Shown piece by piece: positions 3,211-38,700 of a stretch of 64,000 bases of DNA. The DNA is from Folioceros fuciformis (lineage: Eukaryota): assembly GCA_049999805.1 (NCBI GenBank), contig JBNGIO010006382.1:158234-222233 (forward strand). Reading direction: 5' to 3'. The stretch's first letter is position 1. The number at the start of each line of letters is the position of its first letter. The notes under the pieces were generated by a model, which was not told the DNA's origin, made no database searches, and worked only from the letters and a program-made list of their open reading frames with translations. The position numbers and the translations under genes were made by a program.

Positions 3211-6200
3211 TCAGGCTGTGCCATCCAAGACAAGCTCCTTGAACCTCTCAATGGCCCTCAGAGCTGTGTTGAAGTTCTCCTCTTCTAGAGCTGCAACAAA
3301 ACGACAGTAGCCAGGGAGTCCAGTCCAAGAACTGTCGTTGATGTACAGTCCAGTTGTCCGAAGAAATGCGTCTCTGATGGTACTGTCGTCTATAACAACT
3401 TTCTTGTTCACAGAATTCGGTCCTTGATACGCAACACTCTTCCCCTCGTACGAGGATGGCTGAGCCAGCAGGGAAACACCACCCGAGGGCTTGACTGTTG
3501 TCCAGCCACTGTTTACAAGCACCTGCCAAGGCCAAGAAAATGCTACTATGAAGAGCAAGGAACGAAGACACCGGAGTCATGAGAAGTCACATATCCTTAC
3601 CTGCTCCAGCTTGTGCATCTTTTGCTCTAGCACTTCTCGTTGATGCTCAAGGTCCTTGGTGAGAACATTGTTTCCTTCATTCAGCATACCAAACAGCTTC
3701 TTCATCGAATATCTGACGGTGCCATGTGGCCTGCTCAGGCTAGGAGACTCTTTGAAAACATCAATGAATACAGGGTCGTGTAGGGCTGCAAATCCAAATT
3801 CAAGCCCCCCAGTACCAGCTTGGATTGAGGATCCTCCGAGAAGCGCAATGCCAAATGTACTGTTTTCTGTGTTTTCAGATAGGATTTTCTCCAAGTTCCA
3901 CAATTGAACCGCATCCTTCCCGAACTCCAGCCCAGAAAAGGACGTGTCCAGGATCACTCGTGCACCATGTTTTTTGGAGACAGTTAAGAGTTCATCAATT
4001 TCATCGTCTGCATACACTGCTCCTGTGGGGCTTACGGTAGGTCCAGATATACATATCCAGGGATCCTGGACAGAGCTAAGAAAGCCATCAAGGCCTTCCG
4101 CAGTTAACTTGAATCCATCCGAAGCTTTTGTCGGAATCACCTTGACACTGGCACTTAGAAACTTGGCCGCAGATACTTGAGCTCCATTTGAACCAGATGG
4201 AAAACAGAGCGTTCCTTTCTCCTCAACACACGCTAGAACAAGCTTGCCGAAGAGTCCTGTCCAAGTGTCACTGAAGAGAAGCTCCTTTGAATGCCAAGTT
4301 GGAAGACCAAACCTGGCATAGAGGTACTCACCAATCTCCAGTTTTGGGTCCATCTCAGTTTCTGCAATATGTTGCCGAGCAAATCCTTCAAATAGGGAGA
4401 CCTTCACGGCCGAAGGAGTTTGCACAGCATTTTCATCAAAATCCATATGGACCACGTCTCTTGCAGGGGGCTCATCACTCAACGTTTCTCCATCGCTGAT
4501 AGCAGTAAGTGCTGTGTGTGGAATCTCAATAAATTGACTTTGTGCGCCTTCGTACTTGGGCAACCTCTGCATCAAGAAAGATTACACGTCAATCACTTTC
4601 CGTTTCCATCACTGATTCTACATCTCGAACAACAAGTTACAACACCGCTACAACAATACGTAGTGGTGTAGCAACTCACCTCTGCTGTTAGATGCCTATC
4701 CGGCAGCTGAAAACTCAGTAGCTCATGGAGAAGACATCCGTAATAAAACTGGCTTGATACAGCTGTTCGACCGTATGTTAGCTCACCTGCCTTGGCAAAA
4801 GCTTCAAGAAAACTTTTATTTTCAGATACGATGAAGGCCACCTCTAAGTCTGAGTAGACCTGCACTGACGTCAATATGTGAAAAAACAGTTTCAGAAAGG
4901 ACTTTCAAGGGAAGCAATCACTGCTTCATTTCAGTGACAAGAGTCACCTCACCTGATTCTTCACAAGGCCACAAATGATCGTTGCATGAAGTGGAAGAGG
5001 GTTCACTGCCAGGTACTGCAGTACACCATTGGTTCCTGGGAGACTGGACAGCTCAACATGATCCGAGATGTCAAGGAATAAGCGAGCACCAACATTCTCG
5101 GTAGTTTCCAGCAGCTTTTCAAACGCCGTAGTGGTCCTCATCTCAAAGTCTGCAAGGCTCGTGATGACAATTTGGGGTTTCAAGTGCTTGACAAGCTGGG
5201 TAACTAGGTCCGCACGGTGAGGTGCCTCCACGACGCAAATCTGAGGTGTTGTCTCCGTGGTGTGGCCAACACTTCCCTGCTTGAGCATGCACCCCAAAGA
5301 ACGGTGAGACGGGAACTTCCACATTCTTTAGAATAACAGCAAGCACCGAAGTATTTTCTGTACCTCAGACGGCAAAGCAGAAAGCCACTTTTTTGGAAGA
5401 AGCCTTGTAAGATTACCATCAACTAGGGCCAGCTGTGGGGCATAAAGCCTCAGGACGTTCTCGATTGCTACAGACCTTGAAGGTACTACAATAAGGTTCT
5501 GCCAACAGACGAGCGTCATGTAGAGCTAAGAATGTATGCTCTCCAGACTTCAACTTCTGAAACAAACGGAGACAGCAAACAGAACATAAGGGATTACCTC
5601 AGAGAGTGACATCTATGAGTAGAGATTTCTTACACTGGGGCTCAATGGAAGACGATGGTATATTCGCAGAAATCCAGCAATAAGTTTCCGAAACCTTGAG
5701 CTTCCCGAGGGCAACTCATATGGGAAGCTTACGAGTTTCCCCAGGGCTCGTGCCAGGTGGGCAAGAAAAGGTATCTTCTCATCTGCCACTGTATCTTCCT
5801 GAAAAGATAGATCCACGGCACCACGTGTGTCCCCAAAACCATCATTCAGGAACTTGAAAATTGTCTTCACCTGGATACAAGACAGGGTGTCAGTTTGTAA
5901 TTGCCCATAATAACTGCAGCGTCCCTCTCTTTGCTGCTATTGAAGTCACCTGATTTGGTTGTCGGAGGTTGCATTCATATACAGACAGCCCATGTGAAAT
6001 CACGCCTCCTGAGTTTGCATAAGCCCAAGCAGTGCGGGCACTTATTGGCTCCTCACTACGACCCATGAAAAACTCAAATCTGTGTCGACTATTCTTCTCA
6101 ATCTCCACAAGGGCAAGAATATCTGTGTCTGCTGCCTGGCACACACAAGCCCAGAGAAAACAGGGCATGAATCTTGGGTGCCATTGTCTAGCAGCTACCA

Positions 6201-7954
6201 CACCCTACTCCAAACTCCAACTGGACATGTACCTGGTTAACTCTGGTCTGCCACAATTTTGTTATGTTGAACCCTCTGCGCTGGAACAGTCTTTCACAAA
6301 CAGCTTGGCCTGGACGACCACCAACGTTAAATATCATTGCACCAGTAGGCTTGATACTTGCTATCCCCTCCTCAACAGCCCGTGCAATAAGGCCGAGTCC
6401 AAACTGGTCTTCAACAAAACCCTGCGGGCTCCAAATTCACCAGGTACATGGAATGAAGGGACAGAAGGCTTGACAAGCAACCTTAAATCAAAGTTGGGAC
6501 AGCCAGTATGAACCAAAAAGTTCGCTTCAAGTATTGTAAGCAGTTACCTGAAGGCCACAGTAGTTGCTCAGGGAATGTAGAAACTCCTCACTTGCGTTCT
6601 CTGAAACTATCTTCTGCATAGCTTCTGGGTCTGGATTCAGTATCTGCAGTTTTACTTCTAACACATAAGTCCGATTGGAGGAACAAAGTTACACGTCTAC
6701 AAATGCCCAGACGTGCAAGGGGCCAACCCGGAGAAATAGAAAAGCAACCGAGACATCACCTGTGGTATGCATCCAATAATGCGGTCGAGCACAATATTCT
6801 GCTCTCTGCAATATGCCAGCAGGTCAGAGACATGAAACTCGACACGGTCCAGAAGGGTTGTTCCTTCATGGTCACGAGTAGGAAACCCGTCTGGAGTGAG
6901 TGCATTAAGATACAGATTGATCCAAGCCACATTAATAGCCCTTGGGTTGATATCAAGACCATACACCTGCAAAACCACAAGCTTTAAACTCTTGCCTTGT
7001 TGCACTCCTGCCAAACATCAGCGCCCTACACCTGACGCTTACCTTTCGTGGAGACCACCTATCTGCTAGTGCAATGGACACCCATCCATTCCCACATCCA
7101 AGCTCTGCAATATCTCGATTCCTAAAACCGATGTCTGGATGCCTGTTAATCCCTTCGAAGAAGGTGAAGGACCAGTCTTCCGGGATGAAAATGCTCGGGA
7201 GCTCCAGCAGCGTAAGGCTTTGCCTGTTGGCCTGAAACCCTGGATGACAGAACGTATTACTGTCAGCTAGGCTGTCAGTTGCAGGATTCCCAATGGCAGC
7301 CGGGTTGACTTCGTACTACATGTTTCAGGTACGTCATAATCACAGGCCAGTTCAAAGACGTTAGCAAGGTACACCACACAAATCTTTTGTTAAATTCAAG
7401 GGTACCCACGGGAGCGTTTCATGGTAAAAGAATTGGCTGCACATCCTCGCAAGTTTCCTGACCACATGCTACTGTTCCCTGAACAGCGGTAACTACGAAA
7501 AGCATTGTTCTACATCACCTGACTCAGGGATGTAACAACGTGTGCTCAGGAATGTTATCTCCACTAACTTATTTCTCCATCACACAGGTCCATTGTCATG
7601 CGACAGACGCAGTAGGCCGAATACCAAACCTCCAGCAGGATGCAAAGACTGGCTCACCACTAACCTCAAAAATTCCCAAACTGACTTCACCAGAGACAAG
7701 AATTCTAGTAACAGACCTTCGTAGTCGGTGAGAGCGAGCTGGTGAATCCGGAAATGATAGGTAGCCAGACAGTCCACACCCTGCAGCTGAGTTTCCACAT
7801 ACTGCTCAACCCAGCTCAAAAACTTCCGTGCTCCCCGGCGAGTCTCCTCATCCTGCAGTCTGGCCAGAATCGTCTTGAATGCAGCGTAAGCCCGATCTCC
7901 AGACTCTCGACATTGCTCTAGAAAAGCCTGGATTTCAGCCTCTTGTGCCTCCAT
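3211..7954 (-). CDS. MMT: Methionine S-methyltransferase (multi-exon; start at 7954, or 7981)
   Basis: Spliced exons give FLEQCRESGDRAY, PSIFIPEDWSFTFFEG, ELGCGNGWVSI, VYGLDINPRA, RIIGCIPQ, FVEDQFGLGLIARAVEEG and a C-terminal PLP-aminotransferase-like domain, collinear with plant MMT. Confidence 0.95.
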
Positions 7955-8417
7955 CTCACCGAAAGACACAGGAACAGGCATCGCAGAACGCTGGCAAAGG
8001 AAATTGCACACTCTAAGTGGATCCGGCCGGATACCAAGACTGGTCAAGGACAATGCTAATCTAGCTTCTATCCCACAAGAATAGTAACAATCTCGTTTAT
8101 AGATTTTTATAGTTTCCTTCAATTCCAAAGCGTGGACGTTTGATTGACTCGGCTGATTGTGATCCACCCATAGATGCGATAGATGCGAAATTTGGGAGCG
8201 AAGCCCGGCGAGATAGAGAGCCAGCCGAGGGACAAGTTCCCGAGCCTTTGAGCTTCCCGCAGTTCCCGTGCCTTCGCTGCCACGTCATCCGAACGAGCTC
8301 TGTTCCGTTAAAAAAAATAACGGAACGGGATATTCTATTTTCTCGCCTTCAGTGGGAAAACAAGCGCGCGTTCTCGGTGCCGTGGGATTTCGATGCGACT
8401 GGCGAGGGAGGTGTAAC

Positions 8418-14317: not shown

Positions 14318-14643
14318 CTGCGCACACAGGAGTAAGCCACACGGTTAAGAGAAAAGCTACACTCATTCCTTAGGAGTGAGAGAGAGGACACTCCAGAGAA
14401 AGTGGTGTGGGGGTAATCATACTCAATTTTAGTAACAGAGCATCCATGAAACCCGTAGCAGTTAGAATGAGTGGTTGTGGGATGTAGCTTTCAGCTTAAG
14501 TAAGGTAGTACGGTTACAGAAAAGGATTGGTATAAAACGGGGTTAGCCTTAGGTGAGAGCAACAGCTGTTGGAGAGGTGGTTGCCAGTCTGTTGGACAGT
14601 GGGATACGTTCACAGTGGGCTACGTGGAGCCTAGTAGGGTTTT

Positions 14644-14703
14644 GTTGTGGAAGTTGAGCTACGTAAAGGAGTTGTGGAAGTTGAGCTGCGTAAAAGAGTT
14701 GTG
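14644..14703 (+). repeat. 27-nt tandem duplication upstream of the F-box ATG
   Basis: GTTGTGGAAGTTGAGCTRCGTAAARGA x2. Confidence 0.8.
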
Positions 14704-14754
14704 CGCAACCAGCGATCCGAGGCACCAGTTGTCACACATACCTGGGGCTTGGGT

Positions 14755-16440
14755 ATGGAGGCCGAGGGGGTGGCCATCATGGGTACGTCGGCGGACAGGG
14801 AAGATGTGGGACTCCGTCTTGGGGAGGAGGCCAAGGAGGTCGTGAGGAAGTATCCAGGACTGAATTGGGAGGAGACTTGCAAGAAGTATTTCGGGGAAAA
14901 CTGGGAAAAGCAGTGGGATGAGGGTAGGGAGGGCTGGGGGAAATTTGTCTTGGACTCGAGAGGTTGGGTGTGGGGGAGGCCCGATCAAGACGAGTCGGCA
15001 AGTGCGGTTTACGATGTCCATGGGCAGAACGTGGAGTTCCCGGTCTTCACCAACGAGGACGAGGACATGCGAGTACAGGATAAATATGAGAACAGAAGGG
15101 AAGAGAAACACATGTCAAGACAGTACTGCTATCTCAAGCTTTACGTGGCCGAGGCAGAAACTGGCTGCTACCCTATGCCCTCTGCTACTGCTAATGTTGC
15201 AGACAGTAGTGCTTTGCTGTGGCAGACATTGCCGGAAGCCATAGTCGAGAAGGTGTTGATGTGTTTACCCCCGGCAGCGCAGGCCCGCTGCCGAGCAGTG
15301 TGTAAGGGCTGGCTTGCTATGATCGAACAGCCAGAGTTTGGCCGGCGTAGCTTTGTGGAATCTCTTTCGCGAACGGAGTGGCCTTGTCTTTGTGCCCACT
15401 CGTTGCTGGAGTCTGGTGCGAGCAGGCAACCACAGGCCATGGGGCGCAGAAACTACTTCTACTCTAACTCTGCTTTTCCCTTGTATAACACCTGGACTGT
15501 GGATATGTCTTTCTTGCCACAGGTGTTCCAAGCTGTAGACTCGCATGTTGACGTCTTCGCATCGTGTTGTTTGATTTGCATCACCCGGCGCCTGCCCGAG
15601 GGAACGGTCATGTGTGTGGTCAATCCGGTGAACATGTCCTTCAAAGTTTTGCCCATGCTTCACAAGCTTTGGAGTTATCGTGTCCTCCCTTTGGCCAAAT
15701 ATGTCACAGATGCAACAGAAATACTTCCTAGCTTCCTGGTCTACCTCCTCGGGGTTTCATCAGCGTTCTTCTCCGCGCATCCACCAGTGAAGGTCCCTGG
15801 GGTTTCACCAGCTATGAATCGCAATCTACGTAACCATGATGGCCACGTCACAATTGTCTACAACAGCATCACTGGTAGGTGGAAGGGCATGATCAGTCAC
15901 CCGTTGAAGCGCGATATTACGAGTTATTTGAAATTGGATCCAATATTGGCGTACGACGGACATCTGTACGCGATAGATGGTAGGAAGCTGCTGCGGCTCA
16001 GCATGGAGAGCGGTCCCCATTACGTGTGGGACTTGACTTTGCCCCAAGTTGACGGCCGCTGGGGCCAAAATTTCAAAAAGCTTGGCCGTTGCTTTGTAGT
16101 AGAGCACAGCGGAAGGATCCTGTACTGCTCTGCTGGCATCTGGACGTTAGACGATACCATGGGCTGGGTCAAGATTGCGAGGAGGTGCCCGGTTCGCCTG
16201 TTGCTGCCTGATGGCTGGGAGTCCAGGACGTCCACATTCGTCTTGACGGAACGTCTGGTGTTGATTCATGTGAAATGTTTTAAGGATCTCATCATTTTCA
16301 TTTATGGTACCTTCTTCTTCGAGGACGGCTCTGCAGTTGCGTACGACATGCGTCGAAATGTCTGGAGAAGGATTCCTGTGCCTTACATTCCCTATGCCAA
16401 CATCTTCCAACCCACGCCTAATTTGAGGCTTATTGAGTAA
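14755..16440 (+). CDS. Intronless F-box protein with a probable kelch-like beta-propeller C-terminus and a Trp/acidic N-terminal extension
   Basis: Long open frame; F-box motif WQTLPEAIVEKVLMCLPPAAQARCRAVCKGW at about 15220-15312; CVVNPV, VYNSITGRW and AYDMRRNVW motifs. First ATG at 14755. Confidence 0.85.
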   Translation: MEAEGVAIMGTSADREDVGLRLGEEAKEVVRKYPGLNWEETCKKYFGENWEKQWDEGREGWGKFVLDSRGWVWGRPDQDESASAVYDVHGQNVEFPVFTNEDEDMRVQDKYENRREEKHMSRQYCYLKLYVAEAETGCYPMPSATANVADSSALLWQTLPEAIVEKVLMCLPPAAQARCRAVCKGWLAMIEQPEFGRRSFVESLSRTEWPCLCAHSLLESGASRQPQAMGRRNYFYSNSAFPLYNTWTVDMSFLPQVFQAVDSHVDVFASCCLICITRRLPEGTVMCVVNPVNMSFKVLPMLHKLWSYRVLPLAKYVTDATEILPSFLVYLLGVSSAFFSAHPPVKVPGVSPAMNRNLRNHDGHVTIVYNSITGRWKGMISHPLKRDITSYLKLDPILAYDGHLYAIDGRKLLRLSMESGPHYVWDLTLPQVDGRWGQNFKKLGRCFVVEHSGRILYCSAGIWTLDDTMGWVKIARRCPVRLLLPDGWESRTSTFVLTERLVLIHVKCFKDLIIFIYGTFFFEDGSAVAYDMRRNVWRRIPVPYIPYANIFQPTPNLRLIE

Positions 16441-25093: not shown

Positions 25094-26507
25094 CGGGTCC
25101 GTTGACCTCATAAGATTGTTCCGTTGTTTCAACTCTTCCTCCCATTACTCAACCTCTCGTCTCTTCTTTTATAGAAGTCGCTTACGCAGATCCTGGACCC
25201 ATCTTCGGGGTGAAAATCCCCTGCACAATGCGGAAGCCGTAGTCCTCGCACCTTTTTGCGATGCTGGCTGAGTTTCATTTGTGGTCTGCCCTCATCAGAT
25301 TCCATTATGATTTATCCACCTTGAAGTGGTCCAGCACACGATCGGAGTAGCGTGTGTCATAAGAACAAGGATTCCGTACCCATAAACCGATAAGGAAATT
25401 AATGAATAAATGATCCACTCTTTTTGTCTTTCTTTTTTTCAGAGAATTGAGCACATTTTGATGTTAACCCTAGTGTCATTGAGTGAGATTAGAACATGAT
25501 ATGTTCAAAAGAAGCTTATAGCACAGCTTACAATAATCAGCATCCTAGTGCGGGAATGCATTGCACTCCATCCTGATACTCAATACTGGTGTGCTTAACT
25601 TGCACCGAAGAAGCAGTTCCAACCTATGAACTTCTTACCTTTAAGTTGACAACACCTTGATAGTATCAACAACTAAATGTTATACTAGAGTACGAAAGGG
25701 CCTGAGCTTTGTGACCTTGTCACGCATTGTACAACCTTGACAGTGTAAGCCAACAAATGTTATTCTAGAGTACAGGAGCAGGAGCACCAAGCCCAACGAA
25801 GCTGTTGTGCATTGTACAACAAGAAATGAAGAGGATGGTTTGTTTCTCTTCATAGCAGCGGCTAGGGCTGAAAGATTGGCACACATCTAAAATAAAGGTG
25901 TACAATCCAATGAGTGTTGCAAAAGGCCATATCAATACCTGAAGCAGATGCCATCCCAAACACTTTCAATGTAAATACATCCAACTCTTGGAAAAGATGT
26001 CCGTATCGTGTTCTTGGACGAATTGCCAAGGATATAAGCAGAAGTGGAGGAGGAGCTACTAAGAACACTAAGCAGAAACAACACTTATGCGGAAAAGACC
26101 GGCCAGAGAAGCTAAACAACTTGGAGAATGGTTAACCTCATTCATTTATTGGATGAAAATGACTTACACGTTTCTTTTGATAGAAAGATACCTTGAGAGA
26201 GATTTTTAAAATCATATTTTTAAGAATGTAAAAGATTAAAATATATAAAGTAAAAAAAGATATTAGTAATCAAATGTTTATTTGTTTAAATCAAAATCTA
26301 AAATAATTTTATGATTATCGCTGCTTATAAACCTGGATGGAGATCAAGATGGGAAAGTGTGAGTAGGTCAAGAGGAAATGAGAAAAGTGGGAGAGTCCCA
26401 GGGTTTGAATGGCAAGCTTTGTCCCGGTACGGAAATGCCAAAAATGAGATGCATATAATATATACATACGGGGGGTGTTTTGTGCCGCATGGCCTAAGTG
26501 CGACGAC

Positions 26508-26547
26508 GGGCTGGGCTGGGCTGGGCTGGGCTGGGCTGGGCTGGGCT
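26508..26547. repeat. (GGGCT)8 array upstream of the GYF gene; site II-like (TGGGCY) and G-quadruplex-capable
   Basis: Eight perfect pentamers. Confidence 0.9.
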
Positions 26548-26888
26548 GCCTGACTCAAAATTGAAGCGTAGCTACCCGCATACAGACCTAGCAGCAGTTG
26601 TAGATGTATGTATGTATGTATGTATGGATGTATTGATGTATGTATTTGTTCTAGTCCCGAGTGTGAAGGCAGAAGGCAAAACCCCGTTCCAAAAGGCAAA
26701 ACCCCCTCTCTGCTTGCTTCCTTGCTCAGGTGCTCACAGGACTCATTCCGCTCACGCCTTTGCTCGCTTGCTCTCTGCGCCGCCGCCTCTGGGCTTGTGC
26801 TCTGCCGAAGCCGCACGCCGGGCTCGCCCGCCCTCTGCTCGCGACGTCGTTGGCTGCAACCTGGGCGCCCCCACTGCTGCTCTGATCG

Positions 26889-34424: not shown

Positions 34425-35152
34425 GTGGACGGAGTGTTATTGACTACGTCCTTCCGTGATGCCGTGTCTTCCTGTACACGGGACTAATGCATATCCGGAG
34501 AGGAAAAGGTTAGCCCACGTCTTCGTCCTGGTCATGATTCCTTCCCCTGGACGTGTCTGCTCGTATGACCTAATCTTATGGCTATGATCTGCGAAAGTGC
34601 AGTGTCTTGAGATGTTGGTGTGGGTTGTGGGCTCTTCGTCAACGACTGATGTAAAGGCGTCTCTATCTCTCTCCGATGGAAGCAGGCTTCCTGATGCAGA
34701 TGAAGCCTCGGAAAGGTGGTGCCGTGGAGGAGCTGTTTCGTGGCATGGGATACCTGGAAAATGGAAGGTCCGGTCCAAACAAGATGACAGTCACGTGTCA
34801 CTGTTTTGTAAAGGATCTTGCTGTTGTGGATGGGTTTCGAGCCTTTCTCTGGCGTCGCCCTCAACACCCCGTAGCAGTTGAAGTAGGCGGCGGTGCGGAT
34901 GCGGGGTTCCCGAATGTATTCTATGTGTTATTGGTAACTGTTGATACTGGTCCCATCGGAAAAGATCTTCGTTGTGGCCTAGCCGGTAGTTGACGCCACA
35001 CCCGAGATTGCGGTGGAAAAAAAAAGGATGCATCAATGTAAAGAAGTCATCACCTCTCGTACAATGACATCAACAAGTCGTGGCCTCGACATCTATTTCG
35101 ATGTCCATGTGTCACCTCTAGCTCCACGATACGGGGGATACGCGATCTCCTC

Positions 35153-35747
35153 CTAAGCCGGAGACCAGGTATCTCCACACTCGTAGCACACGAAATACAG
35201 AACGCTCTCTTTCCCCAGCGGTTTGTACTGCACCAGTCACAGTGTTAGACAGGAACCACCAGCAAGAACAAGGGAAGGTCGTTCAGGGATTTAGAGCTGA
35301 CGTTAAAGAAGCCGGTTTCGACATTGCGGCATCTTTTGCAGCGGATGGACTTGGTCTTAGGCAGAGCTGGTTGTGACTTCACGTCCTGCACAAGATGCAT
35401 GCTCGCTTCTGCTGTGTGATTGATTTCCAGGTGGTATACGATGTTGTTCTCCGCAGGCTCCTGCTCCATGACACCAGAAAGCCCAGACATGTGAGAAAGA
35501 GTGACAAGAGCTTGCGCTATGCATACTCCAAGGATGAGGCTGTGGCGCATCGCACCTGATAGTCGCACCATCGACATGCGTACAGAAGAGTCTTGTTGGT
35601 TCTGTCTGCCTTGGGGTGAAGCATGTTGTTGCTGCAACGTGCAGACACGGCGCTGGTCACAAGTTCGAAAGAAACGAGAGGAACAACAGCAAACACTGGG
35701 AGGAATCGTAGACGTTACCAGTCGCGGCAGAACTTCAAGCTGGTCAT
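35153..35747 (-). CDS. Divergent RNA polymerase ninth subunit (RPB9/NRPB9-like), 112 aa, 4 exons
   Basis: Exons 35747-35719, 35631-35556, 35460-35302 and 35227-35153 give [112 protein letters not shown]. Both Zn ribbons are intact. Confidence 0.9.
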
Positions 35748-38700
35748 TGTCGCAGCCTCTGCTTCGGGAAATACGGCTCGCTGGACTGTGAGTTAGGTTT
35801 TTGCGGAATTAGAGGAAGGTAGAAGCGTACCCGTATCGTCCGATCCTGAATCCGTCCGCTGCAAGGTGCCAGCGCCGTAATTCTCAGCGTCGGTAGCTAA
35901 GCTTTCGGGTAGCTAGAGCTGGTTCCCTAGTCTGAGGGCGGCCATCCCATTCGAGACATGCCCACCGCCAGCAGGAGGGATAGTAGAAAACGAAGCACAT
36001 GGCGACCGGCAGCACATGTGCAAGCCAAACGAGGAAGCAGCCTTCGGGGTAATCTTAGGTGTATGCAAGCAGCCTTGGAATCTGGTTTGCTGGGAATTTT
36101 CGACGTATGAAGGTGAAAACAGTGACAGGCTTCCAGATTTCGACTCTTCGTGGCCAGGGGAAAGAGTGGCTACGTGTCGATGTGGTCTTTGTTGACTAAA
36201 ACTCCACTTACCCACATGTGCAGATTCTGCGAGAAGCAACCCGCTAGCACCTTCACGGAGGTGATTGCAATCTGAAAAGGTCAGTACAGCGGCTCCTTTA
36301 ACAGTAGCAGGTTTTGCGATTACTGCCAAGCTGTACGAGGTGTCTGCAAGATATTTTCTGGTGGGATTGGTGGCCGTTGAATTGAGTTGTCCTTGTCCCC
36401 TTGTGGACTCCTTTTTTCACTTTGAATTCAAAACAATATCAAGGTGTCCCAAACTGCGTTTTGCACATTCCTTCCTGAGCGCGAGCAGACAAGACAGGGA
36501 AGAATGCAGACGAGGATATAAAAAAAACATGAAGATAGGACTGGGTGAGGTGCCAGGTAGGTGTTCAGGCTAAGTTGTTGCAGCCTGTGAAACTTGTATC
36601 ATGTCCACTGAAGGATTGCCGGCAGCACTTGATCCAACGGATTCAGAAGCTTTGCCTATTGATGGTGACTAGTAACAGGTGGCTTTGAAGGTGCAAGAGA
36701 TAGTAAAGGCAGTTAGAAAAGATGATGGTTGAGGCCAGCAGAACAGAAGAGAACAGCACAGGGTGTGGGTGGAGGAGACATGAGAAACGAAGCAGAATGG
36801 CAAGAAAGGAAGGCCTTAACGTGATGGCTCCCAGGGTCGACGGCAGGCGCAGGGTGCAACAACTGTTTGCTCCGGAGCCATGAGAAATGGAGTGGACCAA
36901 GTCTTGCGTTTTGTTGCACAGTGATGGCCCTAGTGGTGATAGAATCAACACAAGAGGCATATATTCTGTGCGCCAAACGGCTCACACCAAAACCGACCGC
37001 ACGACATCTCTACAGTTGTGACCTGTGCAGTAGAAACGTCAGCAGCAGCTGGCAGCGACGGCGTGGGCCGGGCAAGGCGAGAACGTGTGGGGGGTACGTC
37101 ACACAGGACAGAGTGTGTCATCACGGGTTGTGATCCCCCTCGTGCTCCAGAGACAAAAGCTTGGAAGTCGGGGCTGCCTGCCTCCCTTTGCCATGTACGG
37201 ATGTTAACGAGTTCCGTACCAAGATCGTGTGAGTGTTGGATGAAAGACCAGTGGCAGTATTCCGTCCATCACTGTCAGATGTAACGTCACATTTTTACAT
37301 CATCGGGATGTATTCACATGCATCTGATACCTGGCACTGTAGAGGCCGATTGAGCAGCACATCTAAGTGGTACGGCTAATCGGCCACAGGGTTCGGGCCT
37401 CGTTGGAAGAGGAAGGTGGACGTTACGAGCAAGGGCTTGCAAGTGCGTACACTAGGTATGTGTATACCGTATATAGTAGGCCGTTGTCATGAGCAAGTGC
37501 ATGATGTCAGAGGTCAGTGTCCTTGTCTACGCCGTTGCAGAGGGGATGAATGGGGTGGGACGCCTTTCCAGGGCTTGGCAGTCTCGAAGGCGTTTTTAGC
37601 CGAGCACAGCAGGCGCCGGCAGCCCTGAGGGCGTGAGCGTTGGCACGCGGGCGTGGGACCCTTCGTGTTAAAGCATCCATGCTCCAGCGTCCTCCAGTGC
37701 TCCAGGCTCCAGCGTCAGTCGATCGCCAATGCGCTCACTGTCATGGTCACTAGGGAGCCGAGGCTCCAAGTGCACGCTTGCACCGGGCGCTCCTGTTCAG
37801 ATGCAATTTGCAGCACACATGGGGCCACGTGAGCCGTGGTATTGGATGACGGATCTCGTTCATGTGTTAACGGCTGTGAAGGCGGGGGTATGTCTCCAAC
37901 CTCTCCAGGTGACCTCATACAGTATCCCGACTGTGCTGTGCTGATTTTTAGCTGGGGAGGCGGAGGCGGAGACGGAGGCAGAGGCGGAGTCGGAGTCCGA
38001 CCTGGACCTGCGGGTTGGGCCCGCATGTACAACAAAACGGAAAGTCTAGGGAGGCAAGCCGGCTGCCAAGTGGCACTGGACGCTGATGAGAGTTGCGGTG
38101 CTGCGTGCGTACGCAGATCCTGAAATTGAGGGAAGGCCCGCTCGTATATGCTAATCTCAGGTTACAGTGGAGCCGCGGGTACCAGGAAGTTCCTCAAGGA
38201 GGAAAAGGCATGCAAGCGACACAAGTTGCAGTCGGGGCTAGCCTGTCCTGTCTCTTGTTTATCGCAGCATGCCTCGCCCCTGCTATTGCTGCTCCCAGCT
38301 CCTGATATGGTTGCTCCCCGGACCGGAAGTAGAAGTGTGCGGAGCTGCGAATCAGCACTGCAATTTCCTTCCACGATCCCACGCCAGTCTAGGAATCCGC
38401 AATTCTCTTTCCTGTCCGGGACGTATTTTCCTTCGCTGCTCTACGATATATTTATGTATATGTACAGGTGACTTATTTCAAGTGCTGGTAGCGTTCCAGT
38501 GAACGTGGCCCGGGCGGTTGGTTCGCCTCGCAGGTCCTGGGCAGAGCCGATCCTCGAAGCAAATCTGCCAACCTCTCGCACTCTGGGCCTCACGTGTCCG
38601 TGTGCGTGCGTGGGATGCGAGATTGCAGGCGCAAACGCAGATGCGGTGTGCGTGCAGCAGTAAGTTTGCAGCGGGCGGGCTGTGGCACAGAAATAGGTGG

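Follow-up and report, generated by a model that had tools for sequence, protein, structure and literature searches.

The locus is a four-exon gene on the minus strand of the window (the whole 64,000-nucleotide stretch of Folioceros fuciformis DNA that was analyzed), running from 35747 to 35153. Its exons join into 339 nt, encoding 112 aa plus a stop codon, and the product carries eight cysteines (positions 7, 10, 29, 32, 76, 79, 102, and 105) in two Cys4 groups. A preliminary description of this DNA had claimed an intact 4-exon, 112-aa gene with eight zinc-ligand cysteines, and the exon join, the GT-AG introns, and the joints read in a public transcriptome-like run (X1) bear this out. The gene was also said to be hidden from the list of open reading frames (ORFs), as it proved to be: among listed ORFs of at least 100 aa, only exon 3 is contained, within a 187-aa frame that reads through introns. 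The altered segments QPALPKT and TGFFN...CYECGDTW read as had been claimed.

Table. Coordinates of the RPB9 paralog and of other features of the window; identities given for the other ORFs are presumed from their translations.
Feature	Positions	Strand	Description
Putative 3' UTR	34684..35152	- (strand putative)	Same run X1 contig; extends into the spliced 3' end of the convergent neighbor (+ strand)
Exon 4, coding part	35153..35227	-	Rewritten loop, last two Cys with shortened CxxC spacing, stop codon
Intron 3	35228..35301	-	74 nt, GT-AG; run X1 joint
Exon 3	35302..35460	-	Linker, QPALPK in place of DPTLPR, first half of C-terminal ribbon
Intron 2	35461..35555	-	95 nt, GT-AG; run X1 joint read with cut +1
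Exon 2	35556..35631	-	Remainder of N-terminal zinc ribbon; PF02150
Intron 1	35632..35718	-	87 nt, GT-AG, within Cys10 codon; joint 35631/35719 in run X1
Exon 1, coding part	35719..35747	-	Start codon and first half of N-terminal Cys4 zinc ribbon; 29 nt
5' leader, transcribed	35748..36240	-	493 nt covered by run X1 contig (unstranded; true start may lie elsewhere)
ORF	3577..8284		Presumably methionine S-methyltransferase-like
ORF	14638..16440		Presumably F-box protein-like
Assembly gap	~26500..26600		N run within an ORF translation
ORF	40722..41435		Presumably flavin amine oxidase-like
ORF	43175..44101		Presumably MSH6/7-type protein-like
ORF	55868..56707		Presumably alcohol dehydrogenase-like
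ORF	58336..59742		Presumably JmjC/cupin protein-like

Searched alone against Pfam, exon 2 matched PF02150 above the cut-off (E 4.4e-6, 26.9 bits; cut-off, 25.2), which gives the paralog the N-terminal Cys4 ribbon of RPB9 and NRP(B/D/E)9. Exon 4 matched PF01096 weakly and under the cut-off (E 0.022), and exon 3 matched no Pfam family; against the PDB, all ten exon 3 matches were RPB9-type chains, with plant NRP(B/D/E)9 the best (E 7e-10). The C-terminal ribbon has its four cysteines and lacks the catalytic acidic hairpin (RSADE). Plant NRP(B/D/E)9 proteins (Arabidopsis 9a/9b; PDB 7EU0 chain I and 8HIL chain I) share with the paralog the two Cys4 ribbons and a length of ∼112 to 114 aa, and they are its best PDB and protein matches; the paralog differs in having QPALPK for the DPTLPR linker motif, with the P-x-L-P core kept, a rewritten C-ribbon loop, and a last Cys pair two residues closer. 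In the ESM Atlas, the recognition score for the paralog was low and the top clusters were streptophyte RPB9/TFIIS ribbons, which serve as a lead only.

The ribbon families PF02150 and PF01096 are also common to the RPA12, RPC11, and TFIIS cleavage factors. Family searches of the genome returned two RPC11-like loci, one RPA12-like locus, and one TFIIS-like locus; RSADE is present in both RPC11-like genes and in the RPA12-like gene, whereas the paralog is without it. The gene is an RPB9 paralog and not RPA12 or RPC11, in agreement with the preliminary description; canonical NRPB9 likewise lacks RSADE.

Transcription was assessed in run X1, where a 1301-nt contig covers 34684 to 36240, omits exactly the three predicted introns (CT..AC ends), and has no letters differing from the window. 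Of three runs, X1 is the only one listed with the paralog, and its contigs show neither strand nor level; X1 is not recorded as RNA, and we take it to be RNA because the paralog and its plus-strand neighbor are both spliced in it. Lack of expression, named beforehand as evidence against a specialized subunit, was looked for in this way, and the three introns were found spliced out. No contig of runs X2 and X3, from other organisms in the same study, matched the paralog, which is not proof of absence. The leader holds six short upstream ORFs (7 to 38 aa), none of the six overlapping the coding sequence, and these may limit translation. At 34478 to 35152, the 3' ends of the paralog and of the convergent plus-strand gene meet or overlap; this neighbor, which by motif we take to be GYF-domain-like, has two alternative GT..AG introns past its stop codon, from 34506 to 34601 or 34684. 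A further X1 contig, less than 90% alike, matches the paralog in part. Its loose ends start at the stop codon (35153) and inside exon 3 (35441), its extra depth is confined to the two bins holding these positions, and a piece of one loose end is absent from the assembly. This contig may stem from a third copy of the gene, from an orthologue of some other species present in the run, or from chance.

An exon 3 search of the host genome gave two matches, the paralog locus itself and canonical NRPB9 (114 aa; G000:C5941). The canonical gene for which the preliminary description had proposed a search is thus present, and the paralog is not the sole copy. Both genes have a 29-nt coding part of exon 1 and introns at the same three positions, and these shared positions identify the pair as a DNA-level duplicate. 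The two proteins are identical at 57 of 111 residues (50% for exon 3 alone), and this distance, with PDB matches that are all of RPB9 type, agrees with the earlier claim of a strongly diverged RPB9 paralog. Canonical NRPB9 is ∼80 to 90% identical to full-length streptophyte NRPB9, and the paralog is 50 to 53% identical to its best full-length plant matches. A DNA search of the genome with the paralog returned the locus only. No third RPB9 was seen in the genome, in an assembly that may be incomplete and with a PF01096 search that missed the paralog's own exon 4. Horizontal transfer and contamination were rejected by the host intron positions, the plant best matches, and the plant neighbors. 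The host is hornwort-like in that its genome encodes LCIB (PF18599), which the accessible text of PMC8075897 reports, among land plants, in hornworts only.

Next, the pattern of substitution between the two genes was examined. pS was 0.92 (saturated), pN was 0.31, and dN was 0.40, with identities of 65, 73, and 31% at the three codon positions. Neutral decay is rejected because synonymous sites are saturated at so low a pN. Sixty-four of 70 synonymous sites differ, compared with a pS of ∼0.49 expected under a neutral paralog branch (p 5e-14); this test is crude, and GC3 differs (0.67 versus 0.50). In 1,000 substitution-only decay simulations run to the same protein identity, an open frame was kept in 38, all eight cysteines in 1, and the splice sites in 39; in no simulation did the frame, the cysteines, the splice sites, and the start all survive. 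The earlier proposal of selection rather than decay is upheld by both results. Positions retained in the paralog have a mean conservation of 0.61, against 0.36 (p 2e-5; 48 distant RPB9 rows). By these sequence measures, the paralog is an old duplicate under purifying selection that is still shaped by the RPB9 fold.

Change in the paralog has been fast and uneven. The terminal protein branch is 0.99 to 1.16 for the paralog versus 0.03 to 0.045 for the canonical protein in two trees, i.e., ∼25- to 30-fold longer; such lengthening over the Pol II copy is necessary for a Pol IV/V subunit and is not specific to one. The N-ribbon has an identity of 0.68 to the canonical protein, compared with 0.36 for the C-ribbon; a gap this wide was found in 1 of 48 comparison rows. 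Three changes fall in DPTLPR; D65 of this motif is kept in all 48 comparison rows (DPT in 41 of them) and is Q in the paralog. Among 33 deeply conserved positions, 9 are altered in the paralog (one depending on the alignment) versus 0 to 8 (mean, 3.4) in the 48 rows, while P66, L68, P69, D61, Y44, L14, and P16 are retained. These 48 rows, judged by eye to come from outside the land plants, were taken out of 119 sequences of near-full length, themselves drawn from the best 150 of 1,855 profile hits and 120 of 253 word hits; the set leans to conservation because the profile contained a canonical sequence, and the contrast is probably overstated. Judged from these alignments, the C-terminal ribbon and the DPTLPR motif have changed the most.

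To place the paralog among plant proteins, homologues were sought by several routes. Of 250 proteins retrieved, not one had a better score against the paralog than against the canonical protein (top ratio, 0.81). A word-based homologue search with exon 3 gave no candidate (102 to 328 aa) with three 5-residue words in common, and a metagenome scan with exon 3 gave 370 pattern matches, none of them confirmed. In a profile search built from liverwort copies and exons 1 to 3, 3 of 58 candidates passed and none was an orthologue; both profile searches were run without exon 4, which did not align correctly as a separate row. The paralog was nested among streptophytes in a quick tree and fell outside the plant group in a careful tree, with no well-supported group in either; these trees rest on 114 columns, and placement and dating are beyond their reach.

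Eight diverged land-plant RPB9 copies were found, from Calypogeia fissa (CAM6122851.1), a relative at 84%, Welwitschia, Phalaenopsis, Dendrobium, Dioscorea, Cajanus, and Carex. Like the paralog, they are 50 to 62% identical to the canonical protein, D65 is changed in five of the eight, and H34Y is common to six; they differ in being just 34 to 43% identical to the paralog and in falling apart from it in both trees. N-ribbon cysteines are lost in three of the eight in the alignment. Orthology with the liverwort copies is unsupported (40 to 41% identity, two or three shared derived residues, and no joint group in the trees). From the sequences, the simplest reading is that diverged RPB9 copies on separate plant branches would be independent duplications. 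The Calypogeia fissa copy (P0142, P0252, and P0253; two records and the relative 84% identical) is a liverwort paralog that is conserved and has an altered DPTLPR of its own; it is a candidate specialized subunit itself.

The polymerase complement of the host was then considered. The genome encodes Pol IV/V catalytic subunits and, separately, the canonical Pol II ninth subunit. Five largest-subunit loci were found, including an NRPE1-like gene (single long frame, 2,164 aa, 29 WG/GW in the tail) and an NRPD1-like gene (single long frame, 1,869 aa, no WG/GW in the tail); both have Pol V and Pol IV chains as their best matches, with Pol V ahead, and the NRPD1 label is therefore drawn from the absence of WG repeats, which mark bryophyte NRPE1-like proteins in the accessible text of 10.1101/2023.12.26.573199. 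NRPD2-like and NRPD7-like genes and several RDR loci are also present. The match to NRPD2 follows a long charged N-terminal stretch and sets in near residue 104 of the solved chain.

Other duplicated subunits provide a comparison for the RPB9 pair. The two NRPB2 genes are identical at 1,126 of 1,184 residues (dS 2.6, dN 0.038) and lie ∼42 kb apart as single open frames of ∼1,190 to 1,200 aa, 95% identical (G000:C6150:36500-41000 and 79000-82700; L058 and L057). NRPB11 and RPC11 are also duplicated, each pair close in aligned exon segments and conserved (contigs G000:C1086, C5218, C5800, and C5627). The dN of the RPB9 pair is about ten times that of the NRPB2 pair; by sequence comparison, duplicated polymerase subunits of this genome are usually conserved. 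RPB5, RPB8, RPB6, RPB10, and RPB12 have one clear locus each, weak extra matches being left uncounted, and an RPB3/AC40 family search gave one match under the cut-off, too weak for a copy count. A second RPC17-like copy on C1551 is apparently broken across frames.

These results led us to favor, at about an even chance of being right, the reading that the paralog evolved independently into the ninth subunit that Pol IV and/or Pol V prefer, with the canonical copy staying with Pol II. A role of this kind, in the RdDM polymerases, had been put forward as an example in the preliminary description. It is favored because the gene is spliced and selected, its ribbons changed unevenly, Pol IV/V genes are present, and the other duplicates are conserved. 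In Pol II structures, the C-terminal ribbon of RPB9 sits at the rim of the funnel or secondary channel; the paralog would thus be most altered where the surroundings of Pol II and Pol IV/V are least alike. We infer that the paralog would still dock through its better-kept N-terminal ribbon and linker. The C-terminal ribbon, released from Pol II and TFIIS constraints, may have been adapted to the diverged surfaces of NRPD1, NRPE1, and NRPD2 or to a partner RDR. A parallel exists in maize, where a lineage-specific subunit-9 duplicate stands beside a canonical copy and its membership is reported from polymerase purification (Haag et al. 2014, as relayed in the accessible text of PMC4476159). The maize subunit resembles the paralog in being such a duplicate in a plant with Pol IV and Pol V; it differs in its evidence, since membership of the paralog is predicted from genomic sequence. 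Any likeness would be independent, as the lineages are far apart. Against a dedicated Pol IV/V subunit, neither Pol IV nor Pol V needs a ninth subunit of its own, because subunit 9 is common to Pol II, IV, and V in Arabidopsis; a dedicated RDR2 has been described as a seed-plant innovation, no orthologue of the paralog was found, and the trees disagree on its placement.

The presence of two NRPB2 and two NRPB11 genes is just as compatible with a variant Pol II, in which the paralog would replace canonical NRPB9 at a particular stage or in a particular cell type (e.g., sporophyte or sperm cells), possibly with the second NRPB2 and NRPB11. RPB9 acts in start-site choice, fidelity, and the TFIIS response, and such a subunit would alter one of these. 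The kept N-ribbon and fold-critical residues and the long leader with many upstream ORFs fit this reading. We consider it unlikely, since the additional NRPB2 and NRPB11 have stayed conserved and have not diverged, the five largest-subunit loci (the three with introns being individually untyped) showed a single NRPB1-type candidate, and the transcript was assembled from the sole run containing the paralog, alongside its neighbor. We assign a similarly low probability to a loosely constrained, redundant duplicate that still folds, can serve in Pol II, IV, or V alike, persists through weak selection or dosage, and has drifted but gained no new role. The recurrence of diverged copies on unrelated plant branches, three of eight with N-ribbon cysteines lost, fits such drift, as do the failure to find an orthologue and the description of the Arabidopsis duplicates as partly redundant. 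Synonymous saturation with the eight cysteines, frame, and splice sites intact instead indicates long retention, the change is uneven between the two ribbons, and the other duplicate subunits of the genome have not drifted.

The three DPTLPR changes and the number of deeply conserved positions altered, beyond the range of the 48 rows, could also mean that the paralog is a two-ribbon zinc protein no longer stably in a polymerase and acting as a free regulator or inhibitor, by analogy with the archaeal TFS4 paralogue, a precedent in the accessible text of PMC5715097. That would be quite improbable for a protein that keeps P66 and the six other residues named above and whose conservation tracks RPB9 constraints. 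A transcribed pseudogene or an assembly artifact would account for the lack of an orthologue and for the upstream ORFs; this reading is largely refuted, with only a marginal chance left to it, by the failure of every neutral simulation to keep all features, by a pS far above pN, and by three exactly spliced introns in a transcript that agrees with the window letter for letter.

A broader proposal builds on the dedicated Pol IV/V subunit. Hornworts may have evolved one independently of grasses, with the C-ribbon remodeled at an RDR/TFIIS-facing surface; together with the liverwort, gnetophyte, orchid, yam, and sedge copies, it would make the ninth subunit a component of the silencing polymerases that has been specialized repeatedly, D65, invariant elsewhere, having been lost more than once along the way. 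We put this forward tentatively, as a possibility that falls short of probable. In the published surveys consulted, Pol IV/V specialization is followed through subunits 1, 2, 4, 5, and 7, and subunit 9 counts as shared, except in maize and for the Arabidopsis 9a/9b split; in the accessible text of PMC4607528, the NRPE9B orthogroup spans the 12 species of that study. A literature search that covered few subscription papers returned no work dealing with the ninth subunit of hornworts or bryophytes, and the subunit-9 terms sought are absent from PMC7714444 and PMC11194755. The kind is known from maize and Arabidopsis, and the hornwort instance appears to be undescribed. If the favored reading is true, the selected, spliced, and strongly diverged ninth subunit of this early-diverging land plant would mean that this step was taken early and more than once. 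The paralog would also be a natural variant with which to ask what the C-terminal ribbon and DPTLPR of RPB9 do in Pol II versus Pol IV/V. In the service of Pol II, it would instead count as an unusual variant of a core subunit; as a loose duplicate, it would be ordinary.

The subunit genes of this genome also differ in structure. The NRPE1-, NRPD1-, NRPD2-, NRPD7-, RPC25-, and RPC17-like genes are single long open frames (G000:C6003, C6380, C6037, C6946, and C836; L032, L033, L059, L038, L036, and L040), the RPC25 and RPC17 labels being read from sequence only, whereas the NRPB1, NRPB7, RPB4, and RPB9 genes have introns. This difference is a hint of repeated retroposition. The NRPD1-like and RPC25-like genes share a strand and are ∼9 kb apart (G000:C6380:223700-233400).
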